Notes: generated by a model not told the origin, from the letters alone. A DNA stretch of 64,000 bases from Gemmatimonadota bacterium (GCA_034521595.1 JAXHMG010000003.1:1312001-1376000), one strand, 5' to 3'; shown: positions 7,583 through 33,226, counted from the first letter of the stretch. A program made the numbers and translations.

Positions 7583-7587
7583 GGTGA

Positions 7588-10720: not shown

Positions 10721-11478
10721 TACGAGAGTGTCCAATTCTCAACCGTTGCTTTTGTCCAAGATCAAACCGGTGGTGACAAAGGATATGGGGTGTGGCAGTA
10801 AACGCTCGATGTAAGCGTCCGGGATGCTATCGTTCATTACGCGTGTTTTGCCGTCGCATCAGCGATGCTGTCAGGATCAGCCACAGGCCCTTCGACGTAC
10901 CGGCGTAAAGCGGGCCAAAGCACCTGACGCAGCAACTCAGTCGTGCCCCTCCCCCCGCCCGAACCTCCCCGACGACCAGGCCGATGGGCTAGCCCGCAGC
11001 CACCGGGCGTTCCTACCTCTCCCGCGCCCTGCGCAACTCCTCCGCGAGTCGGATGAGATCGGTCGCGCGCTTCTGCGTCAGCTTGGCGAGCGCCTTCTCC
11101 CAACCCTCCGGCGGTGCGCGATAGGACGCGGACTCAGGGTCCAGGCGGGCGCGCCGGAGGGACTGGCTGCGGAACCCCCGCCGCCTTCGCAATGTCGGCG
11201 AGCGCGACGCGGGCGCCGGTCGCCCGGTCGGTGGCCTTCTTGAAATCCAAAGACTACGCTCCTGGTGCCTGAAGTGCGGATGGCCACGACAGTGTAGCCA
11301 ATGAGGGCCACGATGGCGAGGATACGGGTGGCGCATCCAGGGCCTCTCCTCCGGGTTGCGCTCCGGAGCATGAAGCTTCACGGGTGCCCATGTTGGAGCG
11401 TCCGATCCGGGCGCGGGACAACGCGGCCCGGCGGCGTGGCATGCTTCTCGATCCGCGAAGCCCCATGACTTCCTTCCC

Positions 11479-13562: not shown

Positions 13563-13665
13563 CTCGGTACTCCCTTCGGCGTGGCACAGCCGGGTCCGCA
13601 CGCAAACCCGGACCTGCAAACTACGGTCCGCGAGCGATGTCGGCACGCATGGCGTGTCACCGCCG

Positions 13666-14706
13666 TCACCGGCCCCTCGAATCCCCCACCGCCCGGAAGT
13701 AACCCCGGAGATTGGACGGCCGATACGACGGATCCTCGTCCCACCGTCGTATGGCCGAAGGATGCAGCGTCTGCGATCGGTCGGGGCGAATGGGACGCTC
13801 GTGGCGGGGCGCCAGCCGGTACCACCCTACCCTGGAATTGTGGGCCTGCGCTGTCGGCTCTCCCTCCAACGGCCGCGCCGCGACGACGTCCGAGTCGAAG
13901 TGGAGACCCGCCAGCTCCGCGTTGTCCATCATCCACTGGAGCGTGATGTCCGACAAGCCGTCGTCCAGGTATCCGCCCCCGACGTCGCTGTGCACGCCGG
14001 GGAACCAGGTCTGGGACACGAGCTGGCCGGGCTTCGGCTTCTCGATCCAGAGCGTCGGCTCGAACGGGCCACGGCGCTCGTCGATGGCGAGTGCGTGGAA
14101 GGCGTACTCCACGGTGCCACTGAGCTCGCAATCGTGGAAATCCCGATTCCTCCGCGTGAGCGCGCGGAGACCGGTGAGGGGGATGCCCAGCGCCCCCACG
14201 GTGTCCCAGACGCCGATGCAGCGGATCGGGATCGACTCGGAGCCGCAGCACGAGTAGCTCGCACGGAAGCTGGTGGGCTGGTCGTCGTCCGGGTGGGTGC
14301 CGGAATCCTGGTACAGCTCGAGGGCGTCGACGTACATGCCGACGTGCTTGCGGTCGAGAATCCCGCACTTCCGGATCATTCCGCCCAAGCTCCGAGCGGT
14401 GTAGGCCCCCCTGCTGAACCCGAAGAGGTAGATCTCGTCGCCCGGCTCGTAGTTCGCGAGGAGGAAGCGATAGGCGTCGAAGATGTTGTCGCTCAGCCCC
14501 CCACCGAACGCCCCGCCGGTGAAGCGATCCAGCACGTTACCGGTGCCGACGCCCTGATCGTAGAAGACGATCTGCGCCACTCCGTCCGGGTCACGCTTGG
14601 CGACGCGGTACGCCAGCTTGACCACGTTCGTCGGGCAGAGTGTTCCGTCCTTCTGCTGGTCCGCCCGGTTCCAGGTCCCGTCGCAGCAGATGACGAGGCG
14701 TTTCAT
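13666..14706 (-). CDS. DUF2235 (Tle1-like) alpha/beta-hydrolase, putative phospholipase
   Basis: KRLVICCDGTWN, TNVVKL, YDQGVGT, FGFSRGAYTAR, IGVWDTVGALG, HALAIDERR, WFPGVHSDVGGGY. No signal peptide. Confidence 0.95.
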   Translation of the reverse strand: MKRLVICCDGTWNRADQQKDGTLCPTNVVKLAYRVAKRDPDGVAQIVFYDQGVGTGNVLDRFTGGAFGGGLSDNIFDAYRFLLANYEPGDEIYLFGFSRGAYTARSLGGMIRKCGILDRKHVGMYVDALELYQDSGTHPDDDQPTSFRASYSCCGSESIPIRCIGVWDTVGALGIPLTGLRALTRRNRDFHDCELSGTVEYAFHALAIDERRGPFEPTLWIEKPKPGQLVSQTWFPGVHSDVGGGYLDDGLSDITLQWMMDNAELAGLHFDSDVVAARPLEGEPTAQAHNSRVGWYRLAPRHERPIRPDRSQTLHPSAIRRWDEDPSYRPSNLRGYFRAVGDSRGR

Positions 14707-15049
14707 GTCACGATCAGAATATCTTCATCCATGCCTCCACTATATCCGGATTACGATTGGTTGGACACGAGGTGGTGGACTGGTCCCGGGTACAGGCCGG
14801 GTACAGCGCCATCGGCGTAGTTTCGATGGCCGAGGCGCACCTTGCCCGCGCGTTCACCGCTGGGCATGTTCACGGGAACACCGGCTCGCCCTCCTTCGTC
14901 TCCGAAGCAGGTGGCCGCGTAGGAGAGAGCCCTCTCCAGCCGGTGCGCACTTCAGCTTGATTCTGCATGAGCGCCCCCTTCTCGATCCACCTCGTCGGGT
15001 CTGTGTCGGTGCGGCTTCCGCCCTGCTATCTCGTGAACAGGAGGCTCCT

Positions 15050-17278
15050 GTGCGTGTGACCGTCCGTATCGACGACGTCGTCGGCCGAAGCTCCTCGCGG
15101 GACGGCAGACCCTGGCTCTGGCCCGTCTTCTTCGCCGTGGACGACACCGCGTTGGCCGGCCTCCTGTCGGGGCGTCCCGAGGAAGAGGGCGTGCTGCATG
15201 CCCATCCCCCGGTCACGGTCGCGGCACGGTCGCCGAATCGGGGCGCTCGGCGTTCGACCCCGCCTCTGGCCCTCTGGTCGTTCGACCTCCGGACCGAAGT
15301 CCTGCGAAGCGAGACCGCCCTCGTGGGCGTGGCCGCGGTCCTGGAGCGAGGAGATCGGCCGTCCGAGGAGGCTCGCGACGCCGTGGACGAGCTGGTCGCG
15401 GGCCTCCGCCTGACCCTCGCCCGACACCTCGGCGGATCGCTGGGGCTGGGGAGCCTGCTGTCCGCGTTCGCGGGCGGTGGGATGGGAATGGACCCGTCGG
15501 CCGGGCTCGATCCGCCGGAAGGTGCCCTCTCCCTGGAAGATCTGGAACGGGGATCCGTCCCGACCCCCGAGTCCGGCCCCCTCGACCGGTTGGCTCAGGG
15601 GCCGGTGCTCGCGACCCTCCGCGGGCAGACCGCGGACATGGACCGCGAGCGCGCGCTGGGATTCTCGATCCTGTCGGGGCTGGTCGCCGATCCGGACTAC
15701 GAGGCCGAAAGGGCCTACGTCCGCCCGCCCCTGGTCTCCGGCTACCGACCGAACGAGCTCGGAGCGATCCCCGAGGACGGCGGCGGCGCACCACCGGACG
15801 ATCCGGGGTTCGGACGCGGGCCGCGTACGGGCGACCGCCCCGGAAGAACCCGCGGGGGACGCGGGACCCCGATCCGGCCCGACCTCGGACGCATCGTCGG
15901 CCGAATGCCTCCGGGGCTCCGGCGGAACGAGCGGCTCGGAATACGCGTTCCGCCCCGCATCGGCCGGCCGGTGCCTCTCCCGGACCCTTCGCCCACACCC
16001 GACCTGCCGCGACGCTTTCACGGCCTCCGGCTCGACCAGCCCGTGACCCTGCCCGAGCTGACCCGGGAAGGCGGCGCGGTCATCGGCTCCGGGTTCGCGT
16101 TCTGGACCCCAGCGGAGCTCGCCGAACCGGAGGCTCGAGGGTTCCGCACGCGCCTCCACGGCGAACGTGGCGCTCGGGTGTCGTTCGTCATGCGGGGAAC
16201 GGTGAGGGTCACCCCACGAGCGGAGGGCCGACCGACGGGTTGGAGCCGGGGGCGGCGGGGTGGCTCCCATCTGGTCGTCCCTTCGGAGGACGGCTCGATC
16301 TCGGTGTACCTGCGCGGGGCGGGCGCGGCCGAGCACGAAACCCTCTCCCTCGAGCCGGATGCGTTCCCGGTCGGTCGCATCTCGGGGGGCGCCCTCGGAA
16401 AACAGCACCTCATCGCTTGGCGCGACGCGGCGGGACGCATTCGGTCCGCCGAGCGGACCGGGGGTGGGTCCTGGGTACCGGCGACGGTCGTGGATCAGGA
16501 CGGCGCGGTCGGAGCGCCGACCCTCCTGGCCGACGCGGCCCGGAAGCGGTGGGCCTTGGCCTACGGCGCCGAAGGCGGGGGCGTCCACGTCGCGGTCTCC
16601 AGGGGACGACGGTGGAAGCGGATGGAGGTCGGCGAAGCGGGCCGCGAAGTCGAGCAGGTCGCCCTGGCAGCTCTTCCCGCGGGCGAGCGCGACAACGAGG
16701 GGCTGTTGTGGGCCGCCTGGGCCGGCGCGGACGGCACGCCCATGATGGCCAGCGAAACCCGTTCCGGGTCCTGGAAGGTGTCCGGGATCCGCGCGGCGGG
16801 AAGCTTGCCGCCGGTCGCCGGCGGGCCCCTCGCGCTCGCCGACCCCACCGGTCGCCTGCCGGCTCTGGCCTACCGGGCCCCCGACGGTCTGGTGCTCCTC
16901 CTTCCGTCCCGCGGACGATGGCGGGTGGAGCGCCCGAAGCTGCCGACGCTGCCTCGACCGGTCGGCGACATCGACGGCGTGACGATACCCGCCTGGAAGT
17001 CCGTCGCCCTGGGGTTCCGATCGGCGGACGGTGGCATTCACCTCGTCCTCCGGGACGGCGACGGCACCTGGCGACATGAGCCCCTCCGCAAGATTCCCGC
17101 CACGCCCGGAGGCGGCTCCGATCCCTGCCTCTGGGTAGCCGGGCGGAACCTCCATGTGGGCTGGCTCGACGAGCGCGGCCACGTATGGGAGGCGAGCCGC
17201 GCAGAAGACGGGACCTGGCGCTCGGCCGACATCGACGCGCTGTCGGACGCCTCCGAATCCGCCCGGGGCCGGTCATGA
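15050..17278 (+). CDS. Hypothetical protein (~742 aa) with a C-terminal Trp-rich beta-propeller (fucose-lectin/PLL-like repeats)
   Basis: RBS CAGGAGG then GTG at 15050. At least 6 repeats such as LIAWRDAAGRIRSAERTGGGSW, LGFRSADGGIHLVLRDGDGTW and VGWLDERGHVWEASRAEDGTW. The stop overlaps the next ATG (ATGA). Confidence 0.8.
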   Translation: MRVTVRIDDVVGRSSSRDGRPWLWPVFFAVDDTALAGLLSGRPEEEGVLHAHPPVTVAARSPNRGARRSTPPLALWSFDLRTEVLRSETALVGVAAVLERGDRPSEEARDAVDELVAGLRLTLARHLGGSLGLGSLLSAFAGGGMGMDPSAGLDPPEGALSLEDLERGSVPTPESGPLDRLAQGPVLATLRGQTADMDRERALGFSILSGLVADPDYEAERAYVRPPLVSGYRPNELGAIPEDGGGAPPDDPGFGRGPRTGDRPGRTRGGRGTPIRPDLGRIVGRMPPGLRRNERLGIRVPPRIGRPVPLPDPSPTPDLPRRFHGLRLDQPVTLPELTREGGAVIGSGFAFWTPAELAEPEARGFRTRLHGERGARVSFVMRGTVRVTPRAEGRPTGWSRGRRGGSHLVVPSEDGSISVYLRGAGAAEHETLSLEPDAFPVGRISGGALGKQHLIAWRDAAGRIRSAERTGGGSWVPATVVDQDGAVGAPTLLADAARKRWALAYGAEGGGVHVAVSRGRRWKRMEVGEAGREVEQVALAALPAGERDNEGLLWAAWAGADGTPMMASETRSGSWKVSGIRAAGSLPPVAGGPLALADPTGRLPALAYRAPDGLVLLLPSRGRWRVERPKLPTLPRPVGDIDGVTIPAWKSVALGFRSADGGIHLVLRDGDGTWRHEPLRKIPATPGGGSDPCLWVAGRNLHVGWLDERGHVWEASRAEDGTWRSADIDALSDASESARGRS

Positions 17279-20200
17279 CGGTGCTACGCGGCATCACGCT
17301 CCTCGACCTGATCCCCGAGCTCCCGGCGGGCGCTCAGGGCATCATCCCCGGCGACATTGGGCGCTTCCTCGAGCTGCTGAGCGTCGTGGAGCACGCCCCG
17401 CTCGCCAACGAGGGTTGGTTCACCCATGGTGGCGTGCTCCAGGGCGCCACCGATGCGGGACTCGAGCTGCCCGCCAACCTCCCGCTCCGGCTTCCGGGCC
17501 TCAACGCCGGCGTTCGCTTCCAGCTCTCGTGGCCCCGCGTGGAGCCCGTGGGCACGGATCCCGGGGACATGGAGGGGGCCCCCGACCGCTGGATCCTGGA
17601 CGTCTACGTGGGACGCATCGTCGTTCCCGTCCCCGGTCCGACGCCGGCGACACGGGTCCCGAGCGCCCCTGCTCAACCCCAGCATCTCGTCGCCGACCGG
17701 TCCCGCGACTGGGTGCAGATCACGGGAAGCGGCGTTCTCCGCATCACGCACGACGACAGCGGAACCGCGCTGGACCTCATCGCCCCGGCCGACCCCCTCG
17801 ATCCCGAGGAGCCCATCGGAGCGGTGCTGGAGCTGGGGCTGAACCCGCCCCACATGCTGTTCCACGAGAGCGGCTTCGGCATGAGCATCGGTCGGGTCGT
17901 CTGGGACGCGACCGGCAGCTACACGCCGCCCGAGATCGAGGCCCGGGGCCACGACGCCGCCTGGAAGGGCGTGTCGCTGGCCGAAGCGTCTCTGTACCTG
18001 CCGCATAACCTGCCGCTGTTCGGGGACGTCTCGTTCGGGGTCAAGGACGTGCTGTACGGACTCACCGACCCGGGCGGCGTGCAATTCGATGCCTACCTGG
18101 AGCTGGGCAATCCGCTCTCGTCGGGCGAGACCATCCAGTTCTTCCAGGAGCTCGAAGACGGAACCATCCATCATCCCTCCGACCCCGGGGCCGGCCTGAC
18201 CCGGACGGTCGTGCTCCACTCCTCGACGGAGGAGCGCGCACGGGTACGGGCCGTCCTCGATTCGGGGGCGGACGCGGTCTGGTCCTATCCGGGCGCGCGC
18301 AACGTCACCGCGCAGGGCACCGACTGGTTCACGGTGACGCCGGGCAACGAGCGGAGCTCGCTCACATTCCGCCGAGTCGCCACGAACGAGGCCGGGGAGA
18401 CGGTGTTCGGCCCGCAGATCACGTTCGTCTTCCGGAAGGAGGTCCCGGAACCGCAGCACGCGCCCAGGATCCAGGTCACGCAGGACGGGAACACGTGGGA
18501 CAACGTGGTCCACCTCTCGGGATCCACGGAAGCGTTGGCGGGCCTGGAGTTCACCGTCGTCTCGGACCCGAGCCTCACACCGGAGCGAAGGGAGCAGCTG
18601 CGATGGGACCTGGAGCACGACGGCGTCTCGCTGTCGGTGACCGGGGACTCGTTCACGCCGGCCACCTCGTTCCGCCCGGGCCTGCACGTGCTGGTGCTGC
18701 ACGACGAGGAGGACCGCACGCGGCGGCTCGAGATCGAGGGGATCGAGGAAGGGCGGCTGATCGTGGGCTCCGAGGGGGGACCGCGTGAGGTCGACGGAGG
18801 CACCGAAGGCGCCGTCGGGGTCACCGGCGTCGAAGCGTCGCACCATCTGGCGACCTACCACGAGTCGGGCGAGCGGACGGCTGCAAGCGGGGATCAGGCG
18901 TCCGTGAGCGGAGGGACGCTCACCGTCCCGGAGGGCGTCCTCGCCGAGGCCGCCCTCGACATCGGCAGCGGCGACGACCCGGACGCGGCGAACCCGGCGG
19001 AGGAGGAACCTCCCGTCCAGGCCGTCCGGATCTTCATGGTCTTCGAGGTGGATCAGTTCGCCGGCGAGTGGCGCCGGATCTCACCGGTACGGACGGACCC
19101 GGGCTGGGACCCGTTCGGGCCCCTGGAGCCCTACCCCGACCACGGCCCGACCGGCACGGGTCCCCGGGACCCGGTGGGCATCGCGTCCGGCGACGCCGTC
19201 TCCCCCTTCGTCCCCTCCGACCTTCTCCGGTGGGCGGAGAGCTTCCCGTCCGACACGGATTTCGTGGTCATCGGCCGCTGCGACGACCTCGGGCCGCAGC
19301 AGCTCAACGTGGACCTCGGTGCCGACCGGGCGCAGGCCGTGTTCGACCTGCTCACGTCGCCGTCCTCCGGATCGGAGCTCACGGCCATCGATCCCTCGCG
19401 GATCTACCACCGCGGGGAGCAGGAGAGCGCGTCCCTCCCCTCCGGCACCCCGGACATCCCGGCGGGCCGGCCCGGGCTGAGCGACCGTGCGGCCATCGAA
19501 TGGCGGATCCACGACGACTATCCGGACTCCGACACGAGCACCGGCTCGGGCTGGGGTCCGACCCGGGACGACCGCTCGGCCCGGCTGGAAGCGAGGTGCG
19601 TGGACGTCTACGCCATCCGGCCCGCCACGGACACCACCGTCGTTCCGCCGTCCGACGACGAATCCCGGGATCCCGCCCGCCGCCGCGCGCTGGTTCCGGG
19701 ACCGGACCGCACGACGTCCGAGGAGCCCGCCCCGCGCGACGTGGACCTGGGCTACCGGCTGCAGCTCCGCGCCAAGTGGGACAGCCCCACCATCGTCGAC
19801 AAGCGCGACTGGATCCCCGTGCTCGTGGAGATGACGCTCGACTGGCAGCGGGAGTCCCGCGCGCTCCCCGACGGCATGGGCGACGTGCAGCCGCAACCGG
19901 TCAGCGACGACGCCAACGCCGAGATCTGGCGGTTCCTCGGTCGCTTCGCCTACGACCCGCGGAGCGGGCAGACGGAGTTCACCGCGGCGCTGGACACGCC
20001 GGGCGACGAGAAGGGGATCTTCCACATCGTCTCTCCGGACGCCGACTCGGACGCCGACGAGGTCGTGGCGCTGGCGCTCGGACTCGGGCCAGCGCTCCTG
20101 GCGGGCGTGGACGCGGCGGAGCCCGGGAGCTCGGCCGTCCGCATCGGCGCGCTGTTGGCGGCCGTGGCCGGGGTGCTCGCCACCGACATCGTCAAGGACG

Positions 20201-23200
20201 GCAAGGCGACCGTCCAGAAGCTCGAGATCAAGCACCGCCAGCGGGACATCGACGACGCCGAAGGAAGCGTGAGCCGCGTGGTCATCGACTACACGGTCGA
20301 GCTGAACGTCGAGACCGACGCGCTCGGCGTCACGACGCGCAAGCCGGCGAAGTTCAGCTACAAGGGCGTCGGAATCGAGTACACGAACGACCCCGAGAAG
20401 GAGTGGTACGAGAACCTCGACATCGTCTACGAGGACGCGTCGTTCGAGATCGTCGACCCCGGCACCTGGGAGATCGACGGTCCCTTGGGCGAGCTTCTCG
20501 GCGTCAGCGCCGTACGGCTGGGCTCCGGCTCGGTCTGGGTCGAGACGGACCTGGACTTCGCGCTGGACCTGGGCGTCGTGGAGATCAGCTCCGCGACCGT
20601 GCGCATCACGGTCGAGCCCTCGGACGGGGTGACCGTGGACCTGCGAGGCCTGGCGGCCAAGGTCGACGTGCCGGGCGCCATCAAGGGCGGCGGCCAGCTC
20701 CAGATCGGGGACGGCGGCGACCTCGCGGCCATGATCGACCTCACGATCATCCCCGCCGAGATCCAGGCCGTGGCGGCGCTCAAGCTCGAGGGGCCCATGA
20801 CCCAGCTCGAGGCCGGCGTCCGCTTCGCCACGGCTCTCCCGCTCGCCGGCACGGGCTTCGGACTCTACGGGTTCAAGGGGCGGTTCGTATCCAACGGCAC
20901 CCGAGACCTCACCGGGCTCGCCGAGGACCCGGTGGAGCGCGAGCTCGGATGGTTCGCCAAGCCGGTCCTCGAGAAGTACGAGCCCAGCGTCGGCCAGTAC
21001 GCCATCGGGCTCGGCGCGATCGTCGGCACCATGCCGGACACGGGGTTCACGTTCAACGCGACCGGCATGGTCACGGTCGAATTCCCGGACGTCTCGGTGG
21101 TCTTCTCCATCGAGGCGAAGTTCCTGAACAAGCCGAGCCTCACCCCCAAGGAGGACAACGACGCCTCCGGCGGATCGGAGGTCAGCTTCGAGCTGATCGG
21201 GATCGTGGCGTTCGACTCGGCCGGCTTGGCGATCGCCGTGACCGGCGAGCTCGAGATCGAGAAGGTGCTGAGGGTCACGATCCCCATCGGGGCCTACTTC
21301 CCCTTCCAGTCGACCGGGGACGCGGCCTACCTCCGCATCGGCTCCGACGGGGCGGGCGGGCGCGCCGGCAGTCCGGTCACCATGACCGTGCTGCCGGACA
21401 TCCTCGATCTGAAGACCTGGTCGTTCTTCATGGTCGAGGAGAAGCAGCTCCTGGATCTGGGCGGCCGCGACGACCTGGACTTCCACGGGTTCTCCATCGG
21501 GTTCGGCGCAGGGTGGGAGTTCAAGTGGGGCGGCGGACCGATCTACCTGACGGTCTCGGCCGGCGTCCTGGTCGGCATGGGCACGCGCCCCATGACGGTG
21601 GTGGGCTCCATCTTCGTGTCGGGCGAGCTCTGGCTCGTGGTCGTGGGCCTCTCCATCAGCGGAGAGATCACGCTCCGGATCGTGCATCAGAACGGCGACA
21701 CGGACTGGTCGCTGACCGGGGAGTTCTGCGGCAAAGTCTCGTTCTTCTTTTTCTCCATCAAAGGCTGCGTCGAGTTCAAGCTGCCCGGGGACACCGCCGG
21801 AGACGCGCCTCCGCCCGATCCCGATCCGCTGGTGACCGGAGTCACCCTCACCGACAAGTTCGTCCGCGTCATCGCCCAGGCGAGCGATGTCACGGCGGGT
21901 GACGCCGTCCTACCGGAGTCTCTGGCGTGGCCCGACGTCGCGCCCACGATCCACTTCTCCCACCGGGTGATGCCGAACCTGCCTCCGGGCGGCTTCGAGC
22001 CCGCGCCCTCGGGCGGGTTCCCGGGGGAGGACTGGTCCGGCACGTCCAAGCTGAAGTTCCGGTTCCGCCTGGACGCGGTGGTCCTGGAGCTGGCCGACGG
22101 GACGGCCGTCGACGTCTCGGGCTGGCCGTCCGTGTGGTGGCAGCCGGCGTTCCGGGCGAGCGTGCCCGAGTCAGGCGACACGCCGTCCTCCGACCACGAG
22201 GGCTGGGACCTGGCCCTGCTCCACTGGGACCCGAGCCCCTGGCGCCGTCCGCTCACGAACGGCGGTGAGGGAATCGAGGCGGATCCCGCCGACGCGGTCC
22301 GCAACCTCTGCGAGCCCGCGCCGGAGCCCTCGCGCCACTGCACGCTCGGCCAGGACGGTGTGCGCCAGGACGTGGACCGGGTCGAGTTCGCGAGCGCGGC
22401 CGGCGGGACGCTTCCGTATCCGTCCTACTTCTTCGTGGATGGCCGGGAGGGATTCGGCGGCCTCGACCTCGAGGCGGTCGTCGCCCTGGCGGACGTGGTC
22501 GGAATGGGATTCGTCCCCGGCTCGCTCCAACCGCTTCCGGGGTCGCTGTCGCTTCCAGGTGTCCCGCCCGCGCTGACGGAAGCCTTCCGCTTCCCGTACC
22601 TGACCCGGGGCGGCGCCATCGCCGGCTCCCTGGGAATGACCGGGACCTTCCGGCCCTCGGTGGTCGATCCGGACCTCGTGCTGGCCATGTGCATCGATGT
22701 TCCGGAGCTCGAGCGCACCGTCGAGCGGTGCGTCGACTTCGACCGGCTCCAGCCGCACCGGAGCCTCGGACCCTCCATCACCCACGAGGACGTGGTCTTC
22801 ACCGACCGCGGCGGGCACCTGCGGACGACCGACTCCCTTCCGGCGGGAGCGCCGGACGGCCGGAGCGAGCTCCGCTTCACCTCGAAGGGGCTCGACGTCG
22901 CCCTCCCCGAGGTCTGTGACCGTGTGAGCCTGACCGTGGCCTATCAGGAACACGGTCCCATCCACGCGATCGCGTTCGACGCGGACGGCCAGCGCCTGGA
23001 CCAGGTCACGGGCCCGACGACCCCCAATGCGGCGACCACGATCTCCGTCGAGTCCCCGGGAATCACCCGGGTGGTCGTCACGGGCGGTTTCGGCACGGGC
23101 ATGCTCCAGGAGGTCTGCTACCGCTTCCGACAGGTCGCCGATCGGAAGGCCATCGCCGAGCGGATCGTGGCACACCTGACGGAGCCGGCGACCTATGCAC

Positions 23201-24783: not shown

Positions 24784-27700
24784 AGCCGCTGCCGCCCAGC
24801 TGGGCCATGGGCGCACACGCCCTGGACGGCGCCGGAGATCCTCACCTCCAACCGGGGGCCCACTTCCGCCTGGCCACCGCGCCCGTGCTGGGGCTTCCGC
24901 TCCGTCCACTGCTCGTCTACAAGCACCGCCTCCATCCCGGCGAGGCGAACGAGGCCATGCAGACGGAGATCCGGTGGACGGACAGTGCCGGACGCACGCT
25001 CACGCCCCCCTTCGACGTGACGCCCGACAACCCGGTAACCGGGCACCTGCCCGTGAGCCAGACGCGCCGCTGCATCTGGATCGAAGTCGCGGCCGAATCC
25101 CCGTCCGACCGGGCGAGAAATCCCGGGGGGCTTACCCGGAATCTCGACGCCGACATCCGCCGCACCATCGACCGGGTCGACCTCGACGCCGTGTCGGGCC
25201 CGATCCGGCTCCGGAGAGACATCCTCGACCTCGTACGCCGCCTCCCCGACTTCGTCTTCCGTCCCGGGCTCAAGGTCGACGCGTTCCTGGAATCGATTCA
25301 GGGCATGTCGTTCCTCGGCTCGCGGACCGAGGCGCCCTACGTGCTGAGCGCGTCGTCGCTCTCGGGCGTGGTGGTGAGCGGCACCGGACGGGTCCAAGGG
25401 GCGCGTTGGCTGGAGTGGGGACGGACCCGGACCAAGCGAGCCCTCTGGCGGGTGCTGCCGATGCCGGTCTCCTCGGGGCCTCGGCACCTCGCTCCGTCCG
25501 ACGCCCGCGACCAGGCGCTGGAGCGGGTGCGGCGAGGCGCGCCGCGGCGATACGGGCTCCACGACCGGCCGGAGACGGCCAACGCCGCGAGCGCTCCGGC
25601 CGCCACCGTCGGCGCGGAGGAACGGCGGGTGACCCGGCTCAGCGAGGATCTCGAGCCCAGCCTCGAAGCGCTGGTGAACGACACCTCGGCAGCTCCTCTG
25701 GAGCTCGGGATCGATCAGGAGCTGGACCAGAGCGAGTCGGACCAGGTCGCCGCCGCCCGTTATCCCGCGTTGGGGACGGTGCTCCTGTCCGCGCTCGATC
25801 CCGGAGTGGCCCGCTGGCTCGGCTTCATGGACCGGGACGAGGACGACACGGCGCCGGTGGGGAGCATCGTGATCTACACCATCCGGGGGTTCTGGTCCGT
25901 CGACTGGAACGCCCTGTCGCTATGGCGGAAGCTCGCCTTCTTTCCGGCCGCTTCGGCGGGAATCGTGTCGTCCTCCCAGCCGCCCGACGGCTCGGTGCCC
26001 TTCGACATCCCCCGCAGATCTCCGGACGGCACCCCCGTATTCGACCTGGAGGTGCCCGCGGTCGCGACGATCGGCGTGCCACCGGACGCGCCGACCGCCC
26101 CGGTTCTCGAGCCTCCGGTAGCGCCCGAGGGTGCGCCGGACGCGGATCCCATGGGCGTCTGGATGCCGGGCACGCCGGGAAGCTACCGCCGTCACGTCCA
26201 GATGCCCGTTCGCGACCTCGTGCCCGGCGCCTGTCTCGCCGTGGCGCGGGAGCACGACGGGACCCGGGAGCGGCTGAACCGCACCGTCCTGGTCGATCCC
26301 GGCACCGGCGAGGAGCGCGCCATGAGCCTCCACGCCGCGCTCCCCGGCAGCGCGGATTCCGCCGATCAGGGCTCGATCAGCGACCGGGAAGCCCACCCGG
26401 ACGCCACGGAGTACCACGCGGCTCAGGCCGACTGGTTCGGTCGTTGGAGCGCCTGGCGTGCGCGGACCATCGGCCCCAAGGAGCCGCCCGCGCCCCCCAT
26501 CCCGGTGATCCAGCCTCGATACGAGATGGCCGAGACGCCGGACCCGATGCACGACGACCCGCTCTGGGGGCGCCTGAGCGTCCGTGTGCCCGTACCTCCG
26601 GCGACGGACCTCGCGCCCGGCTCGCACCCCCTGGACCGGATCCGCATCGAAGGCACCGTGGCCGGTGCCACGACGGAGTCGTTCGCGGTCGAAGAGCCCG
26701 TTCCCTCGGCGCCCGGGCCCCATCTCGAAGTGGAGATTCCGGTCCCGACGGGCTCCGGCGGAACGGCGGCGTTCCTGGCCCGGACGGAGATCGCGACGGC
26801 CACCATGACCGCCCGGTGGATCGACGCCGATGGCGGCCTCTCCGAGCCGACGGAGCCTCGAGAGCTCGACCTGGTCGATCCGCGCCCTCCGGAGCCCGTG
26901 ACCATCGACCCGACGCTCACGTACACCGCCCGGCCCGACGCGACCGGGCGCGCGCTCGCGCGCATCGGTTGGACGGCCTCGTCCACGCAGCACGGCTTCC
27001 GCGTCTACTTCAGCGACGAAACGCGGCTGGTCGAGCGGATGGAGTCGGTCGCGGCGGGTTCCGGCTCCGACGCGTCCACGGCCCAAGCGTTCCTCGACGA
27101 TCTGGCGGCGGCCGGGGGACCGGCCGAGCGCGCCGCGGCCTTCACCGCGCCGGGGCGCCCGGAGCAGTTCCGGCGGGACTGGTTCGAGAACCTCACGGGC
27201 GACCTGCTCGTGGGCTCGGGAGACATGCGCTTCCAGCACGACCTCTCCGCGTCGCTCCGCTCACTGGCGTTCTATCGCGTGGTGGCCGTCAGCGAGACGA
27301 ACGTGGAGTCGGAGTTCGCCGGCTCCCCGCTCGTCCCGCGGGCCGTCCCCAACAGCGGGCCGCCGCCCCGGCCGATGATCGAGGTCGTCCCGCGCGACCG
27401 CATCCCCGACGACGTGACCGTGGGAGAGCAGGAAGTCCTCCTTCGCGTCCGGGTGGTCCGCGGCGCGCAGCCCGTCTCGCGGGTCCGGCTCCGCCGGAGC
27501 TCTCGTGGGGGCGGAGACGCGCTGCGGATGCCCGTGGCGCTCGAGACGGACGTGACCCCCTCCGAGCCGGGGCCTGACGGAATCGTGACCGTGGACCTGG
27601 TCGACACCGGAGCGTACAACCACGAGCCCGGCCGGATTCTGCGTCCCTTCAGCAACTACTTCTGGCGGGTCGAGGTCCAGGCGCCGAACGAGCCCGGCAG

Positions 27701-28100
27701 CTCCCTCCCGGGCGAATGGAGCCCGCCCAGCGACGCGACCTCGACCCTTCTCGTCGGGCCACGACCCGGCCCCGTGACGGGGCTCGCTGCCGCCGCCAGC
27801 CCTCCACCCGACCCCGTGGTCACCCTTACCTGGGAGCACCCGGAGCCGCTCCTGCCCGGCGGGATCGGCGGCTTCCGCTTCGAGATCCTGCGGCGGCAGG
27901 ACGGTCGCGAAAAGGTCGTGGGCCAGCTGGCCGCGGACGCGGACCCCGCCGCGGGTGGCCGAAGCGGACCCGGGGACTCGTTCACCTGGACGGAGACGCT
28001 CGAAGGCGCCGACCCCGCGGAGGACCTCGAGTACAGGGTGGTGACCCTGGACCCACTCGGCCGCCGTGGGCCGGTCTCGTCCCCCGTCAGCCTTCCCTGA
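24780..28100 (+). CDS. Large protein (~1106 aa) with fibronectin type III/Ig-like modules
   Basis: GGAG RBS and ATG 24780 overlapping the upstream stop. Fn3-like module ends: YHAAQADWFGRWS, FYRVVAVSETNVES, YFWRVEVQA...GEWSPPS, YRVVTLDPLGRRGPVS. Confidence 0.82.
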   Translation: MKPLPPSWAMGAHALDGAGDPHLQPGAHFRLATAPVLGLPLRPLLVYKHRLHPGEANEAMQTEIRWTDSAGRTLTPPFDVTPDNPVTGHLPVSQTRRCIWIEVAAESPSDRARNPGGLTRNLDADIRRTIDRVDLDAVSGPIRLRRDILDLVRRLPDFVFRPGLKVDAFLESIQGMSFLGSRTEAPYVLSASSLSGVVVSGTGRVQGARWLEWGRTRTKRALWRVLPMPVSSGPRHLAPSDARDQALERVRRGAPRRYGLHDRPETANAASAPAATVGAEERRVTRLSEDLEPSLEALVNDTSAAPLELGIDQELDQSESDQVAAARYPALGTVLLSALDPGVARWLGFMDRDEDDTAPVGSIVIYTIRGFWSVDWNALSLWRKLAFFPAASAGIVSSSQPPDGSVPFDIPRRSPDGTPVFDLEVPAVATIGVPPDAPTAPVLEPPVAPEGAPDADPMGVWMPGTPGSYRRHVQMPVRDLVPGACLAVAREHDGTRERLNRTVLVDPGTGEERAMSLHAALPGSADSADQGSISDREAHPDATEYHAAQADWFGRWSAWRARTIGPKEPPAPPIPVIQPRYEMAETPDPMHDDPLWGRLSVRVPVPPATDLAPGSHPLDRIRIEGTVAGATTESFAVEEPVPSAPGPHLEVEIPVPTGSGGTAAFLARTEIATATMTARWIDADGGLSEPTEPRELDLVDPRPPEPVTIDPTLTYTARPDATGRALARIGWTASSTQHGFRVYFSDETRLVERMESVAAGSGSDASTAQAFLDDLAAAGGPAERAAAFTAPGRPEQFRRDWFENLTGDLLVGSGDMRFQHDLSASLRSLAFYRVVAVSETNVESEFAGSPLVPRAVPNSGPPPRPMIEVVPRDRIPDDVTVGEQEVLLRVRVVRGAQPVSRVRLRRSSRGGGDALRMPVALETDVTPSEPGPDGIVTVDLVDTGAYNHEPGRILRPFSNYFWRVEVQAPNEPGSSLPGEWSPPSDATSTLLVGPRPGPVTGLAAAASPPPDPVVTLTWEHPEPLLPGGIGGFRFEILRRQDGREKVVGQLAADADPAAGGRSGPGDSFTWTETLEGADPAEDLEYRVVTLDPLGRRGPVSSPVSLP

Positions 28101-28109
28101 GGAACCCCG

Positions 28110-31100
28110 ATGCACACGCTGACCCCCGATCCATCCACCCTCGGGATCCAGACGCCGCAGATCGGGCCCTGGTTCTCCTCCGACACCGTCGAGTTGCCGG
28201 TCGCCGACGACCGCCTCGCCGTGCCGCTCACGCTCGACGGCGGTGTGGCCTGGCTCCCTCCGGCGGGCGGGCTGCTCTCCTTCCGCATCGCGACGCCCGA
28301 CCGACCTCGGCGCTTGGCGGGCTTGCGCGACGGCGCGGGCGAGCCGGCCTTCGACGACGGTCACCTGGTCGCCGAGTTCCGCTTGCTCCCCGAGGTGGAG
28401 GCGCGCATCGATCGGCTGATGCGTGTGCTTCCGACCCTCGCCGGCGACGACGCCGCGGGCGAAGGCCGCACGCGACCCCGCGTTCGCACGTTCGCCCTGG
28501 AGATCATGACGGCGTCCCCGTCGTGGACGATGCTCGAGTCGCTCCTGCCGGCGACCTTCGGCCTCCCGGGTAGCTCGACCGCGGAGAACGTGGCGCACGT
28601 CGGGCTGACGGGGACGGCGCCGCTCGGCAACGGCCCCAAGCCCATGGGGGACCTGAAGCGAACCGGGAAGCTCATCGGCGCCTTCGAGCAGCTGCTCCAC
28701 TTCCCGACCAGCACGGACGTGAAGCTCTGGGCATTCGACCACCGCGGCCGGGCCCTGGACCCCGGAGCGGTGGCCTGCTGGTGGCTCTTCCTGGCCACAC
28801 ACGCCGACAACGGCTTCGACGGCCTCTGGGCGGAAGGGCTGGAAACGGGAGACCAGCGGACGGCCCCGATCGCCACGGATGCGGACGAGCTCGTCCTGCA
28901 CCTCGTGGATCCCCAGGGCGGCGCTCCGCTGGAGCCGACTCTGGCCCGCATCGACGGCGCCAACCTCGACGGAACCGGCACCGTCCGTCGCCGGGGAGCC
29001 GAGGACGAGGCGGCGACGCTGTCCTTTACCGACCCACCCACCGATGACCCCGACGATCTACCGGTGCCGCGCATGGCGCTCCTGCCCGACGGCGTGTTCG
29101 GGGAGACGGTCTCCGTATGGCCCACGGGCACGGTGGACCCGATCCTCCGTCGCGACTTCGCGAGGGTCGCCGCCCTCTCCGTAGAGCTCGCCCTGACCGG
29201 CCAGCGCCGTACGCCCGCGCCGGGCTCCACCCCCACGGCCGCGGACGAGCGGCGCGCCGAGGATCAGGCCAGGACGTCCACGCGTGTATCCGTCGCACGG
29301 GCCGAGCGGACGGACGCCCTACTCGACACGCACGAGGAGGTCATCGCGGGGTTTCGGGAGGTCTTCGAGGGGCCGGAAGCGACGGACCTGGCCACCGGCG
29401 TGCTCGAGGCCGGATGGGGCCCGATCACGCCCGCGCTTCCGGACGAGGATCCTCCGACGGCCGCCCCCGACTTCACCGTAGAGCCGCTGCAGGGCGGAGG
29501 CGTGGACGACGGTGGGACGGTCGTCGATCAGAAGGCGCTGGTTACCTCGACGCTCGACGCATCTCTGGAAGGCGCCTGGGTGAGGGTCTGGACGCAGGGC
29601 TTCGACCGGGAGCGGGCGGAGCACTTCAAGATGGACGGGGGCGCCGGCCGCGTCGCCGACGACGGGACGGTGCGCCTGGTCACGCGACTGCCCGACGGAG
29701 CCGTGGATCCGTCCACGCCCATGGGCATGGACGTCATGGTGGTCACCGACCGGGGCGCACGGCACTTCGCCGACGTGCGCTTCGACCGGCCGGCCCCCGT
29801 CGGAGGTGACCCCGCGGCGCTCACCGAGTCGGACGGCACGCCCCGATCCGGCACGACCAGCGGGCTCGACCTCGGCTCGGCGGTCGTCGTGTGTGAGACG
29901 GGCGTCTCCCACGCGAGCCTTCCGCTCCCCGACGACTCCGTGCCCTCCGGATCGTCCCTCGTCGCCCTGACATCGCCGCCGACATTGGTGGATGCCTCGA
30001 CGCTGCCCACGGCGGCCCGCGTAGCCGCGCTCGGGGGCGTGCTCGAACCCGAAGACCGCGTGCGCCTCGTCGAGCCGGCCTTCCAGTCGAGTCCCAGGGG
30101 CGACGCCGCCGAGGACCTCGCCCCCGCCACCGTCCATGCGACGGATCGGAGGGACAGCTCGGCGTGGGAGTCCGGCTTCCCCCTGCCCTCCATGGAGCGT
30201 CTCGAGTCCGTGGCGTCCAATGTGGGCGATGCCGAGGGCCGGGGGGCCGTCGGCGCCGTGCCCGCTCTTTCGCGCTACCATGACTTCCTGCATCACCGCC
30301 ACGGCAATCCGAATGCTCCCGCCGCGCCGGACACGCACGGGACCGGGGTGAGGGTGCGCGGGCCGGCAGCCCGCCTGCTCGCCGAGTACGCCCGGGATCG
30401 CACGAGCGAGAGCACGTTGGACCTCGTCGCCCGAGCGGCCACGCCCGTGCCGGAACCGTCCGACGTGGACGGCGACGCCCTCTGGATCGCCGGCCTCCGA
30501 ACGGTGGCCGCGGGGGTGGAGGGCGAGGTCGGGCTCGGCGTGCTGGCGGACGCGAGCATCGCCGGCTTCGACCCCTACCCGCTGGGAGACGCGTGGACGA
30601 GCGTCCAGGCCTGGATCGAGGACAAGATCGGCACGCTCCCCTCGGAGCTGGACGACACCACCGCAGCGGTGGACAGCATCGTGCGCGCGCTCGACCGTCG
30701 CTTCCTGGCCGCGACGCGGGGAGCGCGCGAGGGCGCCACGTCCCTCCAGGCCGCCCTCGGCAGGGCCCAGGACATCGTCTACATCGAGACTCCCGCCTTC
30801 GACGCCCGCGCGTTCGACGACGGCGACGACAGGCTCGACCTCTGGTCCACACTGGTCCAGCGGATGAAGGACAATCGAGCGCTCCACCTCGTGATCTGTG
30901 CGCCCGTATGGTTGCTCGACGGTGCTCCGGCACCGCTTCAGAGGGTACGGGACGCCATCATGAACGAGGCTCTGTCAGCACTTCAGGAAGGCTCCACCGG
31001 AACGGCCGTCCCGACGCTGGAGGAACGCGTGGCCACCTTCTCTCCGGCGGCGGGCCCCGGACGCTCCCTGCGCATCGCATCCACCTCCGTCGTGGTCGAC

Positions 31101-31523
31101 GACGCCTACGCCTTCACCGGCTCGACCCACCTATGGCGGAGGGGCCTGAGCTTCGACTCGTCGTACGCGGTCGCCGCATTCGACGAGCGCGTCCGGGACG
31201 GCCGGCCCGCGGCCGTGACCAGCTTCCGGAGGCGGTTGCTGGCCGGACGCCTCGGGGTCGAGCTCGGGGGCGTCCCCGACGACCCCGTGCAGATCGTGCG
31301 GGCGGTCCGGGACCTCTCTTCCCGGGGCGGCTTCGGCCGGCTCGCCGCCGAGCGGATCCGGGCACCCGACCCCACGCTCACCACCTCCACGGATCCGTCG
31401 ACGATCAGCGACGTCGATCTCTGGGATCCCGACGGGAGCCCGCCGGCGAGCTTCAACCCCGTGGAGTGGATCGCCGGCATGCTGACCACCGTGCAGACCG
31501 AGGAGCTCACACCGGCGCCGTAG
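28110..31523 (+). CDS. Large protein (1137 aa) with a C-terminal degenerate phospholipase D fold
   Basis: GAGGA RBS; starts 9 nt after the previous stop. PLD-like segments HGTGVRVRGPAA, AQDIVYIETPAF and RIASTSVVVDDAYAFTGSTHLWRRGLSFDSS, in which the His and Lys of HxKxxxxD are absent. Confidence 0.82.
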   Translation: MHTLTPDPSTLGIQTPQIGPWFSSDTVELPVADDRLAVPLTLDGGVAWLPPAGGLLSFRIATPDRPRRLAGLRDGAGEPAFDDGHLVAEFRLLPEVEARIDRLMRVLPTLAGDDAAGEGRTRPRVRTFALEIMTASPSWTMLESLLPATFGLPGSSTAENVAHVGLTGTAPLGNGPKPMGDLKRTGKLIGAFEQLLHFPTSTDVKLWAFDHRGRALDPGAVACWWLFLATHADNGFDGLWAEGLETGDQRTAPIATDADELVLHLVDPQGGAPLEPTLARIDGANLDGTGTVRRRGAEDEAATLSFTDPPTDDPDDLPVPRMALLPDGVFGETVSVWPTGTVDPILRRDFARVAALSVELALTGQRRTPAPGSTPTAADERRAEDQARTSTRVSVARAERTDALLDTHEEVIAGFREVFEGPEATDLATGVLEAGWGPITPALPDEDPPTAAPDFTVEPLQGGGVDDGGTVVDQKALVTSTLDASLEGAWVRVWTQGFDRERAEHFKMDGGAGRVADDGTVRLVTRLPDGAVDPSTPMGMDVMVVTDRGARHFADVRFDRPAPVGGDPAALTESDGTPRSGTTSGLDLGSAVVVCETGVSHASLPLPDDSVPSGSSLVALTSPPTLVDASTLPTAARVAALGGVLEPEDRVRLVEPAFQSSPRGDAAEDLAPATVHATDRRDSSAWESGFPLPSMERLESVASNVGDAEGRGAVGAVPALSRYHDFLHHRHGNPNAPAAPDTHGTGVRVRGPAARLLAEYARDRTSESTLDLVARAATPVPEPSDVDGDALWIAGLRTVAAGVEGEVGLGVLADASIAGFDPYPLGDAWTSVQAWIEDKIGTLPSELDDTTAAVDSIVRALDRRFLAATRGAREGATSLQAALGRAQDIVYIETPAFDARAFDDGDDRLDLWSTLVQRMKDNRALHLVICAPVWLLDGAPAPLQRVRDAIMNEALSALQEGSTGTAVPTLEERVATFSPAAGPGRSLRIASTSVVVDDAYAFTGSTHLWRRGLSFDSSYAVAAFDERVRDGRPAAVTSFRRRLLAGRLGVELGGVPDDPVQIVRAVRDLSSRGGFGRLAAERIRAPDPTLTTSTDPSTISDVDLWDPDGSPPASFNPVEWIAGMLTTVQTEELTPAP

Positions 31524-31632: not shown

Positions 31633-32673
31633 ATGCTCAACTACATCTGGTCCGGGCTGATCATCGCCAGCGTCGTCTTCGCCCTGTGGTTCGACGTGGG
31701 CGACCTCACCCGCGACACGTACCGGAACGGCCAGGCCCTCCCGGTCGAGCTCCTCCTTCCCGAAGACTACGACCCGGCGGCGCGGACCGTCCCGGTGGAG
31801 ATCCGCGTCGAGCCGGACGAGTACAGGGACTTCTACGGCACCGACGGCGCTCCGGCGGATGCCTATCGCGGCCAGCTCCTCCAAACCCGCGAGGGGAGGC
31901 AGCTCCGCTTCGAGGCCGAGGCCGAGCTCCCCGAGCCGCTGGCCACCATCCGGGAGGTGTCGAGCTCACAGGAAGGCGAGCTCCAGGGCACCCTGACCGA
32001 CTTCGAGCCGGCGGCGGCGGAGGCGGCGACCGGGGAGCCGGCGGACGCGCCGCCCGCGGTGGAGGCGTCCGTTCGCTTCGAGCCGGTCCGCTTCGTGAAG
32101 ATGAACGCCATCGCCGAGGCCGCGCTGGAGTTCGCCACGACGGCCGCCGAGATCGCCCTGGGTCTCATCGGCGTCCTGGCGCTCTTCCTGGGACTCCTGA
32201 AGATCGCCGAGGAATCGGGCATCATCCATTCCCTGGTGCGCCTCGTGCGGCCCGTCCTGCGCCCGCTCTTCCCGGACATCCCCCCGGATCACCCCGCGCT
32301 GGGCATGATCGCCCTCAACCTCACGGCCAACATCTTCGGGCTGGGCAACGCGGCCACGCCCTTCGGAATCAAGGCCATGGAGGAGCTCCAGGAGCTGAAC
32401 CCCAGCGAGGACACGGCCACGAACTCGATGGTCATGCTCCTCGCCATGAACACCGCCAGCGTGCAGCTCGTGCCGCCCGTCCTCCTGCTGGCGCTCATGG
32501 GCCTCCAGATCAATCAGTTGATCTTCGCCATCATCCTCACCACGGGCCTGTCGCTCGTCGTGGCCGTCACGGCGGCCCGCCTCTACGGCCGGATGCCGGG
32601 CAGCCGCGCCTCGGATCCCCACGACCGTTCGGACGCGGGCACGACCCCGTCCGCGGCCGGCGGCACGGACTGA
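31633..32673 (+). CDS. spmA: SpmA-like nucleoside-recognition (Gate) membrane protein with a large extracytoplasmic insertion
   Basis: MLNYIWSGLII; LFLGLLKIAEESG; LFPDIPPDHPALGMIALNLTANIFGLGNAATPFGIKAMEELQELNP; LAMNTASVQL. Confidence 0.9.
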   Translation: MLNYIWSGLIIASVVFALWFDVGDLTRDTYRNGQALPVELLLPEDYDPAARTVPVEIRVEPDEYRDFYGTDGAPADAYRGQLLQTREGRQLRFEAEAELPEPLATIREVSSSQEGELQGTLTDFEPAAAEAATGEPADAPPAVEASVRFEPVRFVKMNAIAEAALEFATTAAEIALGLIGVLALFLGLLKIAEESGIIHSLVRLVRPVLRPLFPDIPPDHPALGMIALNLTANIFGLGNAATPFGIKAMEELQELNPSEDTATNSMVMLLAMNTASVQLVPPVLLLALMGLQINQLIFAIILTTGLSLVVAVTAARLYGRMPGSRASDPHDRSDAGTTPSAAGGTD

Positions 32674-32683
32674 GGAGGCGATC

Positions 32684-33226
32684 ATGGAGACCATCCGTCA
32701 GACCATCGGCCTGCTCTCGTACTTCGTCATCCCGCTCATGCTGGTGGGCTTCCCGCTCTACGGGCTCTACAAGCGAGTGCCGGTCTACGAGGCGTTCGTG
32801 GAGGGGGCGAAGGAAGGATTCAGCGTCGCGGTCCGCATCATCCCGTACCTCGTCGCGATCCTCTTCGCCATCGGCATGTTCAGGGCCAGCGGCGCGATGG
32901 AGTTCATGGTCGAGGCGCTGCGGCCGGCGCTCGCGCTGGTCGGCTTTCCCGCCGAGGTCCTGCCCATGGCCATCATCCGCCCCCTCTCGGGCTCGGGCTC
33001 GGCGGGCGTCGTGGCCGAGATGATCGCGACCTACGGGGAGGATTCGATCCTCGTGAAGATGGCCGCCGTCATGTTCGGCTCGACGGAGACCACCTTCTAC
33101 GTGGTGGCCGTGTACTTCGGGGCCGTGAACATCCGGCGCACCCGCCACGCGGTGCCGGCGGGGCTGACCGCCGACATCGCCGCCATGCTCTTCGCGGTGT
33201 GGAGCGTGCGGCTGTTGTTCGGATGA
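32684..33226 (+). CDS. spmB: SpmB/YjiG-like membrane protein
   Basis: VYEAFVEGAKEGF...IIPYLVAIL.AIGMFRASG; RPLSGSGS; GSTETTFYVVAVYFGAV.IRRTRHA. Confidence 0.93.
   Translation: METIRQTIGLLSYFVIPLMLVGFPLYGLYKRVPVYEAFVEGAKEGFSVAVRIIPYLVAILFAIGMFRASGAMEFMVEALRPALALVGFPAEVLPMAIIRPLSGSGSAGVVAEMIATYGEDSILVKMAAVMFGSTETTFYVVAVYFGAVNIRRTRHAVPAGLTADIAAMLFAVWSVRLLFG

Follow-up and report, generated by a model that had tools for sequence, protein, structure and literature searches.

A horizontally mobile three-gene cassette for giant proteins, conserved in order across at least seven bacterial phyla

We analysed a stretch of DNA of 64,000 nucleotides (hereafter the window) from a Gemmatimonadota bacterium (GCA_034521595.1, JAXHMG010000003.1:1312001-1376000). 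A first-pass annotation of the window had proposed an undescribed machine, made of a coupled operon of four giant signal-less proteins (genes A to D) and a DUF2235 hydrolase encoded head-to-head with it. We found that the conserved unit is smaller than this and comprises B, C and D only. These three genes recur on the same strand and in the same order in bacteria of at least seven phyla, and the B-C-D cassette is almost certainly a conserved unit. It moves horizontally, and we regard it as a new kind of system. Positions count from the first letter of the 64-kb window; the region under study (13666-31523) contains the following genes:

17275-24783, plus strand: gene B, 2502 aa; giant core protein of the cassette
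24780-28100, plus strand: gene C, 1106 aa; universal partner of B
28110-31523, plus strand: gene D, 1137 aa; protein with a predicted phospholipase D (PLD) fold, without HKD motifs
15050-17278, plus strand: gene A, 742 aa, GTG start; lineage-specific, upstream of B
13666-14706, minus strand: DUF2235/Tle1-like alpha/beta hydrolase (PF09994); divergent neighbour outside the conserved cassette
14707-15049, no strand: divergent intergenic region of 343 bp, with AGGAGG 5 nt ahead of the GTG of A

Conservation and mobility of the B-C-D cassette

Relatives of D were found in 132 of 185,579 genomes (one per species), and 64 loci were kept for the synteny analysis. In these loci we searched for A, B, C, D and the DUF2235 gene using tblastn. 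Fifty loci offered at least 9.6 kb of upstream DNA, and in 49 of them D is preceded by B and C, with strand and order unchanged. This recurrence is far beyond chance. The sole exception is Herbidospora solisilvae (L048; L and G numbers denote our loci and genomes), where D stands alone. Loci with shorter upstream DNA contain the expected 3' part of C. According to the record titles the carriers belong to at least seven phyla, namely Actinomycetota, Gemmatimonadota, Myxococcota, Acidobacteriota, Chloroflexota, Pseudomonadota and Bacteroidota, the last represented by a Cytophagia metagenome-assembled genome (MAG). The homologues are full-length at 33-60% identity and share many invariant columns.

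The genes are tightly joined. In the window, direct reading gave an ATGA overlap at the A/B junction (17275-17278) as well as at the B/C junction (24780-24783), while at the C/D junction the stop codon TGA (28098-28100) is followed by 9 nt and the ATG of D at 28110. Of the 49 loci, 29 offer a 4-nt start/stop overlap at B/C and 20 offer one at C/D. In an uncultured Acidimicrobiia MAG (L005:7151-13378, plus strand) C, cut near residue 992, runs on into D in the same frame without a stop codon, which is either a natural fusion or an assembly error. All four frames in the window are open, and the third-position GC content (GC3) of A, B and D is 0.80-0.91. The four co-oriented, intact and coupled open reading frames (ORFs) of the first-pass annotation, with their lengths and junctions, are thus borne out by ORF calls and direct reading.

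In the flanks of the loci compared, no further gene is conserved beside B-C-D. Flanking genes vary and include Wadjet, RecBCD, RNase H, TonB receptors, transporters, regulators and transposases, as well as an RHS giant, a DUF4157 protein and Mrr with type I restriction-modification (R-M) genes. In Ornithinimicrobium cavernae (L027:13457-22870, plus strand) a 3138-aa RHS-repeat/PKD protein begins about 240 nt past D on the same strand. A 648-aa DUF4157 (eCIS_core) protein adjoins D on the opposite strand at another locus (L015), and a Hint/RTX protein is among the neighbours at a third (L030).

The first-pass annotation had named missing synteny in other genomes, or assignment to a described secretion or toxin system, as grounds for giving up its proposal. 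We found the gene order kept in the loci of at least seven phyla, and searches of Pfam, NCBIfam, PADLOC and PHROGs assigned the genes to no described secretion, toxin or defence system. Its wider unit of four genes plus the hydrolase did not hold, since A occurs in close relatives only and the DUF2235 gene in none of the 64 loci.

Gene A is a lineage-specific add-on to B-C-D. Its GTG start lies 5 nt after AGGAGG, and its homologues begin with MRVTV. Besides the genome's own record we found only four of these (61-88% identity) in 5.8 billion clusters, and A was detected neither in five carrier genomes nor, by tblastn, in any of the 64 loci. Residues 1-39/59 of A match the N-termini of ORFs of 280-320 aa directly upstream of B in three Gemmatimonadota loci, a likeness which suggests that a fast-evolving upstream partner may exist in some lineages. 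A hidden Markov model (HMM) of this N-terminus rose above noise only in its own source loci (L068, L079, L080) and, ahead of B at the remaining loci, brought up nothing resembling A. In Acidimicrobiia MAGs and one Pseudomonadota MAG (L076, L081, L082), B is immediately preceded by ORFs of another group, about 280-300 aa long; these share 34% identity with one another and have no detectable relationship to A.

The DUF2235 gene is an unrelated neighbour of the cassette. As had been annotated, an intact hydrolase of this family faces the operon: it matches PF09994 with 297.5 bits (E 1.3e-88) over profile positions 1-286 of 287, and its nucleophile elbow GFSRG conforms to GxSxG. The linkage that had been suspected was not found (0 of 64 loci, tblastn). 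Furthermore, a copy with 90% nucleotide and 91% amino-acid identity is present in a different context in a same-genus genome without B (window 13663-14799 against L166, G003:C3:260709-261815; flanks unrelated). Other genes shared with that genome are only about 66-78% identical, and the DUF2235 gene looks recently transferred or separately mobile, as judged from these identities. On the 0 of 64 loci and the copy in a genome lacking B, we rejected the hydrolase as catalytic partner of the operon. Compared with Tle1 effectors of type VI secretion systems (T6SS), it has the catalytic domain and the GxSxG motif, whereas TssC/VipB (PF05943), the only T6SS gene searched for, was not found in this 93%-complete genome (the E. 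coli control was positive).

The cassette is patchily distributed. D was absent from 38 of 40 relatives, and in the remaining two only its last 24 codons are present, where contigs stop. In these two same-genus MAGs (L002, G004:C161; L003, G002:C28) the contigs end 73 nt into the 3' end of D, at 82% identity. The rest of the operon was not found elsewhere in the G004 and G002 assemblies, where the island may have escaped assembly or binning. Five same-genus genomes yielded no B, save for one match of 77 residues at E 5.9e-4, and one same-genus genome has only spmAB in common with this part of the window. B-C-D moves horizontally. Searching D against plasmids gave one weak partial match (19% of the query), and against 50,697 phage records none.

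Two more distant groups extend the family. The first is a second clade of 11 distant B relatives of about 2240-2490 aa, which have the same architecture and 25-28% identity over 25-35% of B. Of 53 metagenome loci of this clade, 19 show matches to the B, C and D profiles in the order of the cassette; many of the other 34 are too short, as they end inside or just after B. Among 151 genomes of one carrier's family the distant B clade was represented only by that carrier's own B (G064). On one second-clade metagenome contig (L112:17500-21100) four small opposite-strand ORFs without Pfam family replace C, and the gene after D encodes a protein of 832 aa that weakly matches zinc phospholipase C (E 2e-5). 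In a third variant (L117, L127-L129, L138, L139) B is followed by a 1220-aa protein and D is missing. This partner is a C homologue (hhalign 98.4%, E 6e-15, 691 columns) and is unrelated to D. Divergent B-C pairs on two metagenome contigs (L143, L144) lie between a coupling protein of a type IV secretion system (TraG/VirD4-type) and a relaxase, gene neighbours which place these copies on a putative conjugative element.

The surroundings of the operon in the window are accessory genes on the left and housekeeping genes on the right, in line with the first-pass annotation:

11479-12135: SRAP gene, left of the operon
10467-10823, minus strand: ISL3 transposase fragment, 25 residues (PF01610, E 1.9e-6)
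31633-33226: SpmA/SpmB-type Gate proteins, right of the operon

The genes on the left also include one for a copper monooxygenase-like protein. Farther away, a 1446-aa ORF (3362-7702, minus strand) consists of an NrfD-type membrane domain fused to a molybdopterin oxidoreductase, an unusual fused respiratory-complex subunit. It is adjoined by a 636-aa protein (7588-9498, minus strand) with many 4Fe-4S motifs.

Domains and predicted folds

Within the four proteins the following regions were recognised:

19255-19404, plus strand: core of the OmpA-like peptidoglycan-binding domain in B (aa 661-710)
20053-20193, plus strand: conserved hydrophobic helical hairpin in B (aa 927-973)
20524-21834, plus strand: divergent DUF6603 domain of B (aa ~1084-1520), predicted as a long antiparallel beta-meander sheet
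27642-27779, plus strand: Fn3-like signature near the C-terminus of C (WRVEVQA...GEWSxPS), a lead only
29172-31433, plus strand: predicted two-lobed PLD-like fold of D (aa ~355-1108) with inserted beta domains
16466-17275, plus strand: repeat region of A (aa 473-742) with six G[ST]W/RxW motifs

For B we collected 49 homologues, 38 of them of full-length type and 11 from the distant clade. In Pfam, B gave a weak OmpA match alone (E 0.019; 15.8 bits against a cut-off of 27.2). Two of its homologues reach the same family at E 8e-6 and 2e-5, and the family profile matched the C-terminal domains of OprF, OmpA and Pal in the PDB with E-values from 8.6e-7 (best, OprF) to 1e-3. N678, L681 and R685 do not vary within this region, D671 hardly does, and the family retains the N..L..RA motif. 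In the alignment with the OmpA templates, D671/D672 of B correspond to the Asp of GxTD and R685 to the Arg of RA, and D671 and R685 thereby fall on the positions of OprF/OmpA that bind diaminopimelate (DAP). B thus probably carries an OmpA-like domain with the DAP-type Asp/Arg retained and predicted binding, by homology.

The hairpin of B comprises two Ala/Leu/Gly-rich helices with Kyte-Doolittle peaks of 1.6-1.9 (19-aa window). A comparable hydrophobic hairpin is present in 22 of 22 aligned B homologues, and the AlphaFold2 (AF2) model predicts two helices here (fragment residues 127-143 and 153-170). Following the hairpin, residues ~1084-1520 of the B family align with DUF6603 proteins (hhalign probability 97.3%, E 1.9e-11, 375 columns). 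In the ESM Atlas DUF6603 clusters make up 24 of 30 matches for B. The PF20248 model itself matched neither B at E up to 0.1 nor the genome in a six-frame search; the distant B relative P0125 matches it at E 2.2e-9. The AF2 model of B residues 800-1900 has long antiparallel strands at low overall confidence (pLDDT 62.6, pTM 0.37), with a block pLDDT of ~50-90 in the DUF6603 part. Foldseek with this model returned membrane beta-barrels only (E 4e-4, TM-score 0.12-0.22), and the top 50 VIA-align matches of the sheet were all membrane barrels (Z 9-11.6, rmsd 6-8 A; best Z 11.6 at 6.1 A). Two Cys pairs, C1485/C1498 and C1679/C1689, are invariant and would fit disulfides outside the cytoplasm.

C is a widespread family without Pfam assignment. 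Its profile detects 934, 641 and 326 proteins at E 1e-3, 1e-10 and 1e-30, respectively, among 1.84 billion representatives, the 934 standing for clusters from metagenomes. Against the PDB the family profile gave weak matches to Fn3 domains of cytokine receptors (best E 0.056). The ESM Atlas neighbours of C include fn3-bearing clusters with scores of 0.90-0.91, in which 13-26% of the members carry fn3.

The D family has 82 members including the query in 5.8 billion clusters, nearly all of about 1100 aa and full length. The AF2 model of D is confident (pLDDT 85.2, pTM 0.90), and the top Foldseek matches in the PDB are all PLDs (E 1.7e-9). VIA-align superimposed D on human PLD2 with a Z-score of 24.4 (413 aligned residues, rmsd 3.3 A), on plant PLD alpha with Z 21.8 and on P. 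aeruginosa PldA with Z 19.8. According to this model, residues ~355-1108 are predicted to form a two-lobed PLD fold, to which an N-terminal domain of about 350 aa and inserted beta domains are added. Neither the PLDc nor the PLDc_2 family of Pfam matched D, and a sequence-profile search of the PDB gave nothing meaningful. The catalytic HKD motif (HxK(x)4D) is found in neither lobe in any of the 82 family members, its placement resting on motif reading rather than on residue-level structural alignment. In the C-terminal lobe, Ala and Thr stand 7 and 5 residues ahead of D997, and at position 990, the expected site of the His, all 82 of 82 members have A, D, S or T; in the N-terminal lobe no HxK was seen. 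Conserved residues of D include H1007, R1010, R1011, D1016, E893 and D898.

The repeat motifs of A begin at 473, 520, 573, 622, 672 and 721, i.e. about 49 aa apart, a spacing compatible with a beta-propeller. A has no Pfam family. In A, C and D a Kyte-Doolittle scan, the only method used here, found no N-terminal or transmembrane-like hydrophobic segment.

The domain claims of the first-pass annotation were largely borne out, though unequally. The OmpA-like domain and the DUF6603-like beta-sheet of B were recovered by profile comparison, the dead PLD fold of D by the structural matches together with the missing HKD, and the lack of a signal in A, C and D by the hydropathy scan. For the propeller in A there are compatible repeats and no Pfam family, and of the Fn3-like modules in C a weak signature remains, whereas there is no Pfam match.

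Comparison with DUF6603 operons and described systems

Sampling 201 Actinomycetes genomes, we found DUF6603 itself (PF20248) in 21, and six of these canonical loci were examined (L159-L164, from genomes G225, G298, G231, G222, G342 and G407). In five of them the DUF6603 protein has 1124-1467 aa, and in one the domain lies inside a 3341-aa protein. At four loci (L159, L160, L161, L164) a variable gene is followed by DUF6603 and then by two giant proteins without known family. The variable upstream genes encode an S8 protease, an HKD-type PLD, an OmpA-bearing protein or a PhoD-like phosphatase; at L162 a LamG protein and a metallo-beta-lactamase (MBL) protein precede DUF6603. PLD and OmpA modules are associated with DUF6603 at L160 and L161, and this recurrence argues that their association in the window is functional. 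Canonical DUF6603 operons look like a modular uncharacterised system in their own right. They resemble the cassette in the homologous domain, in several giant proteins without known family and in the association with PLD and OmpA. They differ in that their partners show no relationship to B, C or D (hhalign probabilities 0.07-0.15%) and in that the enzyme is upstream and variable; moreover, the domain in B is fused to the OmpA-like region on one side and to about 1000 residues more on the other. In the six loci, HMMER with the profiles of B, C and D gave no match, and only hhalign linked the DUF6603 domain. PDB sequence-profile searches with the canonical DUF6603 and partner families (A7, A8, A9) found nothing meaningful.

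Among described systems, Tc toxins come closest in layout. They likewise consist of three co-oriented giant genes (~2500/1100/1100 aa) without signal peptides and with patchy horizontal spread, and the second and third genes are fused in one B-C-D carrier (L005), just as TcB-TcC fusions are known. However, VRP1, TcA_TcB_BD, SpvB, TcdB_toxin_mid and RHS are all absent from A-D (Pfam at E up to 0.1; NCBIfam). Instead of forming an alpha-helical shell, B is rich in beta-structure and contains an OmpA-like domain, and D has a predicted PLD fold rather than an RHS cocoon. The likeness to Tc toxins would thus be an analogy of layout only. Eukaryote-type PLDs, including the T6SS effector PldA (Tle5a), have the same two-lobed fold as predicted for D (Z 19.8-24.4), but D lacks HKD and carries an extra N-terminal domain, and no T6SS sheath gene was found in the genome. 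From domains of the OmpA/Pal/MotB type the one in B differs in being embedded at residues ~600-720 of a 2502-aa protein without signal peptide. The module order of B also resembles that of inverse autotransporters of the intimin/invasin type, in which a peptidoglycan-binding module is followed by a long-stranded antiparallel sheet and then by a long beta-rich C-terminal region; here the differences are the generic barrel matches, the lack of a signal peptide and the monoderm carriers.

The first-pass annotation had recognised no T6SS, phage-tail or contractile injection genes in the window. This agrees with the absence of TssC and Phage_sheath_1 from the genome and of any PHROG match for A-D, on the basis of which we reject, for this genome, that the proteins are cargo of a phage tail, a T6SS or an extracellular contractile injection system (eCIS). 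NCBIfam gave only weak OmpA equivalogs for A-D. In 8.1 million PubMed Central papers and 0.36 million preprints, a corpus outside of which subscription journals and bioRxiv supplements lie, we found no paper on DUF6603, PF20248, IPR046538 or three locus tags. As we could link the cassette neither to a paper nor to any described system (secretion, toxin, defence or envelope), we class B-C-D as a new kind of system.

Possible functions of the cassette

We tentatively favour the reading that B-C-D is a self-contained, horizontally mobile, envelope-acting conflict module that is loosely toxin-complex-like. Conserved order, tight junctions, horizontal movement and domain content are what was observed; from these we infer the remainder of the mechanism. 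B, C and D would be made together by co-translation and assemble into one large complex that acts on the cell envelope. B would dock on peptidoglycan via its OmpA-like domain and enter the membrane with the hydrophobic hairpin and the long-stranded DUF6603 sheet. C, with its Fn3-like modules, may be a scaffold or adaptor. D, which keeps a cluster of His, Arg and Asp, could be a pseudo-enzyme that binds phosphate-bearing ligands, e.g. phospholipid head groups. The resulting particle, released from its producer although made without signal peptides, would perforate or remodel the envelope of another cell. A conflict role is suggested by the variable enzymes of canonical DUF6603 operons and by the occasional RHS, DUF4157/eCIS_core and Hint/RTX neighbours; the OmpA-like domain, the hairpin, the Cys pairs, the Fn3 leads and the PLD fold point to the envelope.

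A number of observations weigh against this reading. By hydropathy none of the proteins has a signal peptide or is anchored at its N-terminus, no holin, endolysin or secretion gene is conserved in the flanks of the loci, and the genome contains neither TssC nor the phage-type sheath Phage_sheath_1, which leaves the exit route of the proteins unexplained. No toxin or immunity gene was recognised, and most neighbours of the cassette are housekeeping genes. Since its carriers include monoderm Actinomycetota besides diderms, the cassette cannot have a general outer-membrane role. With its short loop, the hairpin would not let the two large halves of B lie on opposite sides of a membrane, the model of B is weak, and the barrel matches of its sheet are generic. 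As to D, the HKD motif is missing throughout the family, and the protein in the window and its two nearest relatives also lack H361 (kept in 71 of 82 members) and H733 (kept in 68 of 82).

The main rival, which we consider unlikely, is abortive infection directed against phages or plasmids. In this case cytoplasmic proteins would sense an invader, the hairpin and sheet of B would enter the cell's own membrane from inside, and D would be a PLD-family effector or regulator. Such a role would suit the sporadic, island-like distribution, the lack of signal peptides and the copies on a putative conjugative element. Wadjet JetABCD adjoins the cassette in Planotetraspora mira (L069), and Mrr with type I R-M in Corallococcus (L060). 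The enzyme at the head of canonical DUF6603 operons is exchanged (protease, PLD or phosphatase), as is usual in defence systems, and PLD-family proteins are common defence effectors. However, true defence genes were found in only 2 of ~55 loci (121 flanking proteins), the other PADLOC matches in the flanks being due to shared ATPase, kinase or helicase domains. PADLOC-DB 2.0 contained no family for A-D or the DUF2235 protein at E up to 0.1, and Pfam and NCBIfam revealed no NTPase, nuclease or nucleic-acid-binding domain. OmpA-like and Fn3 modules as well as paired invariant Cys are unusual in cytoplasmic proteins, and D lacks the HKD residues.

The first-pass annotation had offered as its second option a resident envelope structure, which would be tethered to peptidoglycan and serve as a scaffold when lipids are transferred or membranes remodelled. 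Omp85 proteins are present in the host, which is a diderm, the OmpA-like domain would provide the tether, the long sheet weakly resembles the LptD, TamA and BamA barrels, and a PLD-like fold could hold lipid head groups. This is nevertheless improbable for a set of genes of which D is absent from 38 of 40 relatives and B, bar the 77-residue match, from the five same-genus genomes. In addition, the cassette is scattered over many phyla including monoderms in variable genomic contexts, its proteins lack a signal peptide or N-terminal anchor, and no match to AsmA, TamB or Mce was found in Pfam.

A giant surface adhesin or matrix assembly without toxic activity, serving attachment to cells, glycans or mineral surfaces, would account for the beta-rich giant proteins, the Fn3-like modules and the propeller-like repeat of A, and the carriers are, by record titles, mostly soil and sediment bacteria with large genomes. 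We give it only a slim chance: there is no signal peptide, sortase or type I or type V secretion signature, hydrophobic hairpin and PLD fold are not adhesin features, and A is not conserved. That the genes are chance neighbours or decaying remnants is hardly credible, even though D in the window has lost two family-typical His residues, as it is contradicted by the order kept in 49 of 50 loci and by the open frames, the GC3 values of A, B and D and the full-length, invariant-column-rich homologues described above.

Going beyond the conflict module that we favour, B-C-D, the second and third clades and the canonical DUF6603 operons might, in a bolder and rather doubtful extension, constitute one superfamily of mobile, signal-peptide-independent giant complexes that breach or remodel envelopes. 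The DUF6603 sheet would then be the membrane-entering core, and the enzyme or pseudo-enzyme subunits (PLD-like, S8 protease, PhoD-like) would be exchangeable. If true, the superfamily would parallel Tc toxins in function while being built from unrelated folds.

Across at least seven phyla, 132 of 185,579 species genomes thus keep a three-protein cassette of about 14 kb intact and ordered. Such a load is costly to the cell, and the cassette must therefore do something important. DUF6603, a domain in about one tenth of the sampled Actinomycetes genomes and in operons with swappable enzymes, hereby gains a first context. Cultured carriers exist in Planotetraspora, Nannocystis, Corallococcus, Halomonas, Methylibium, Pelomonas and Ornithinimicrobium, which makes the question of function directly testable. 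The predicted parts of the cassette, i.e. peptidoglycan binding, a membrane-entering hairpin and sheet, and a pseudo-enzyme with PLD fold, suggest a new way to act on bacterial envelopes.

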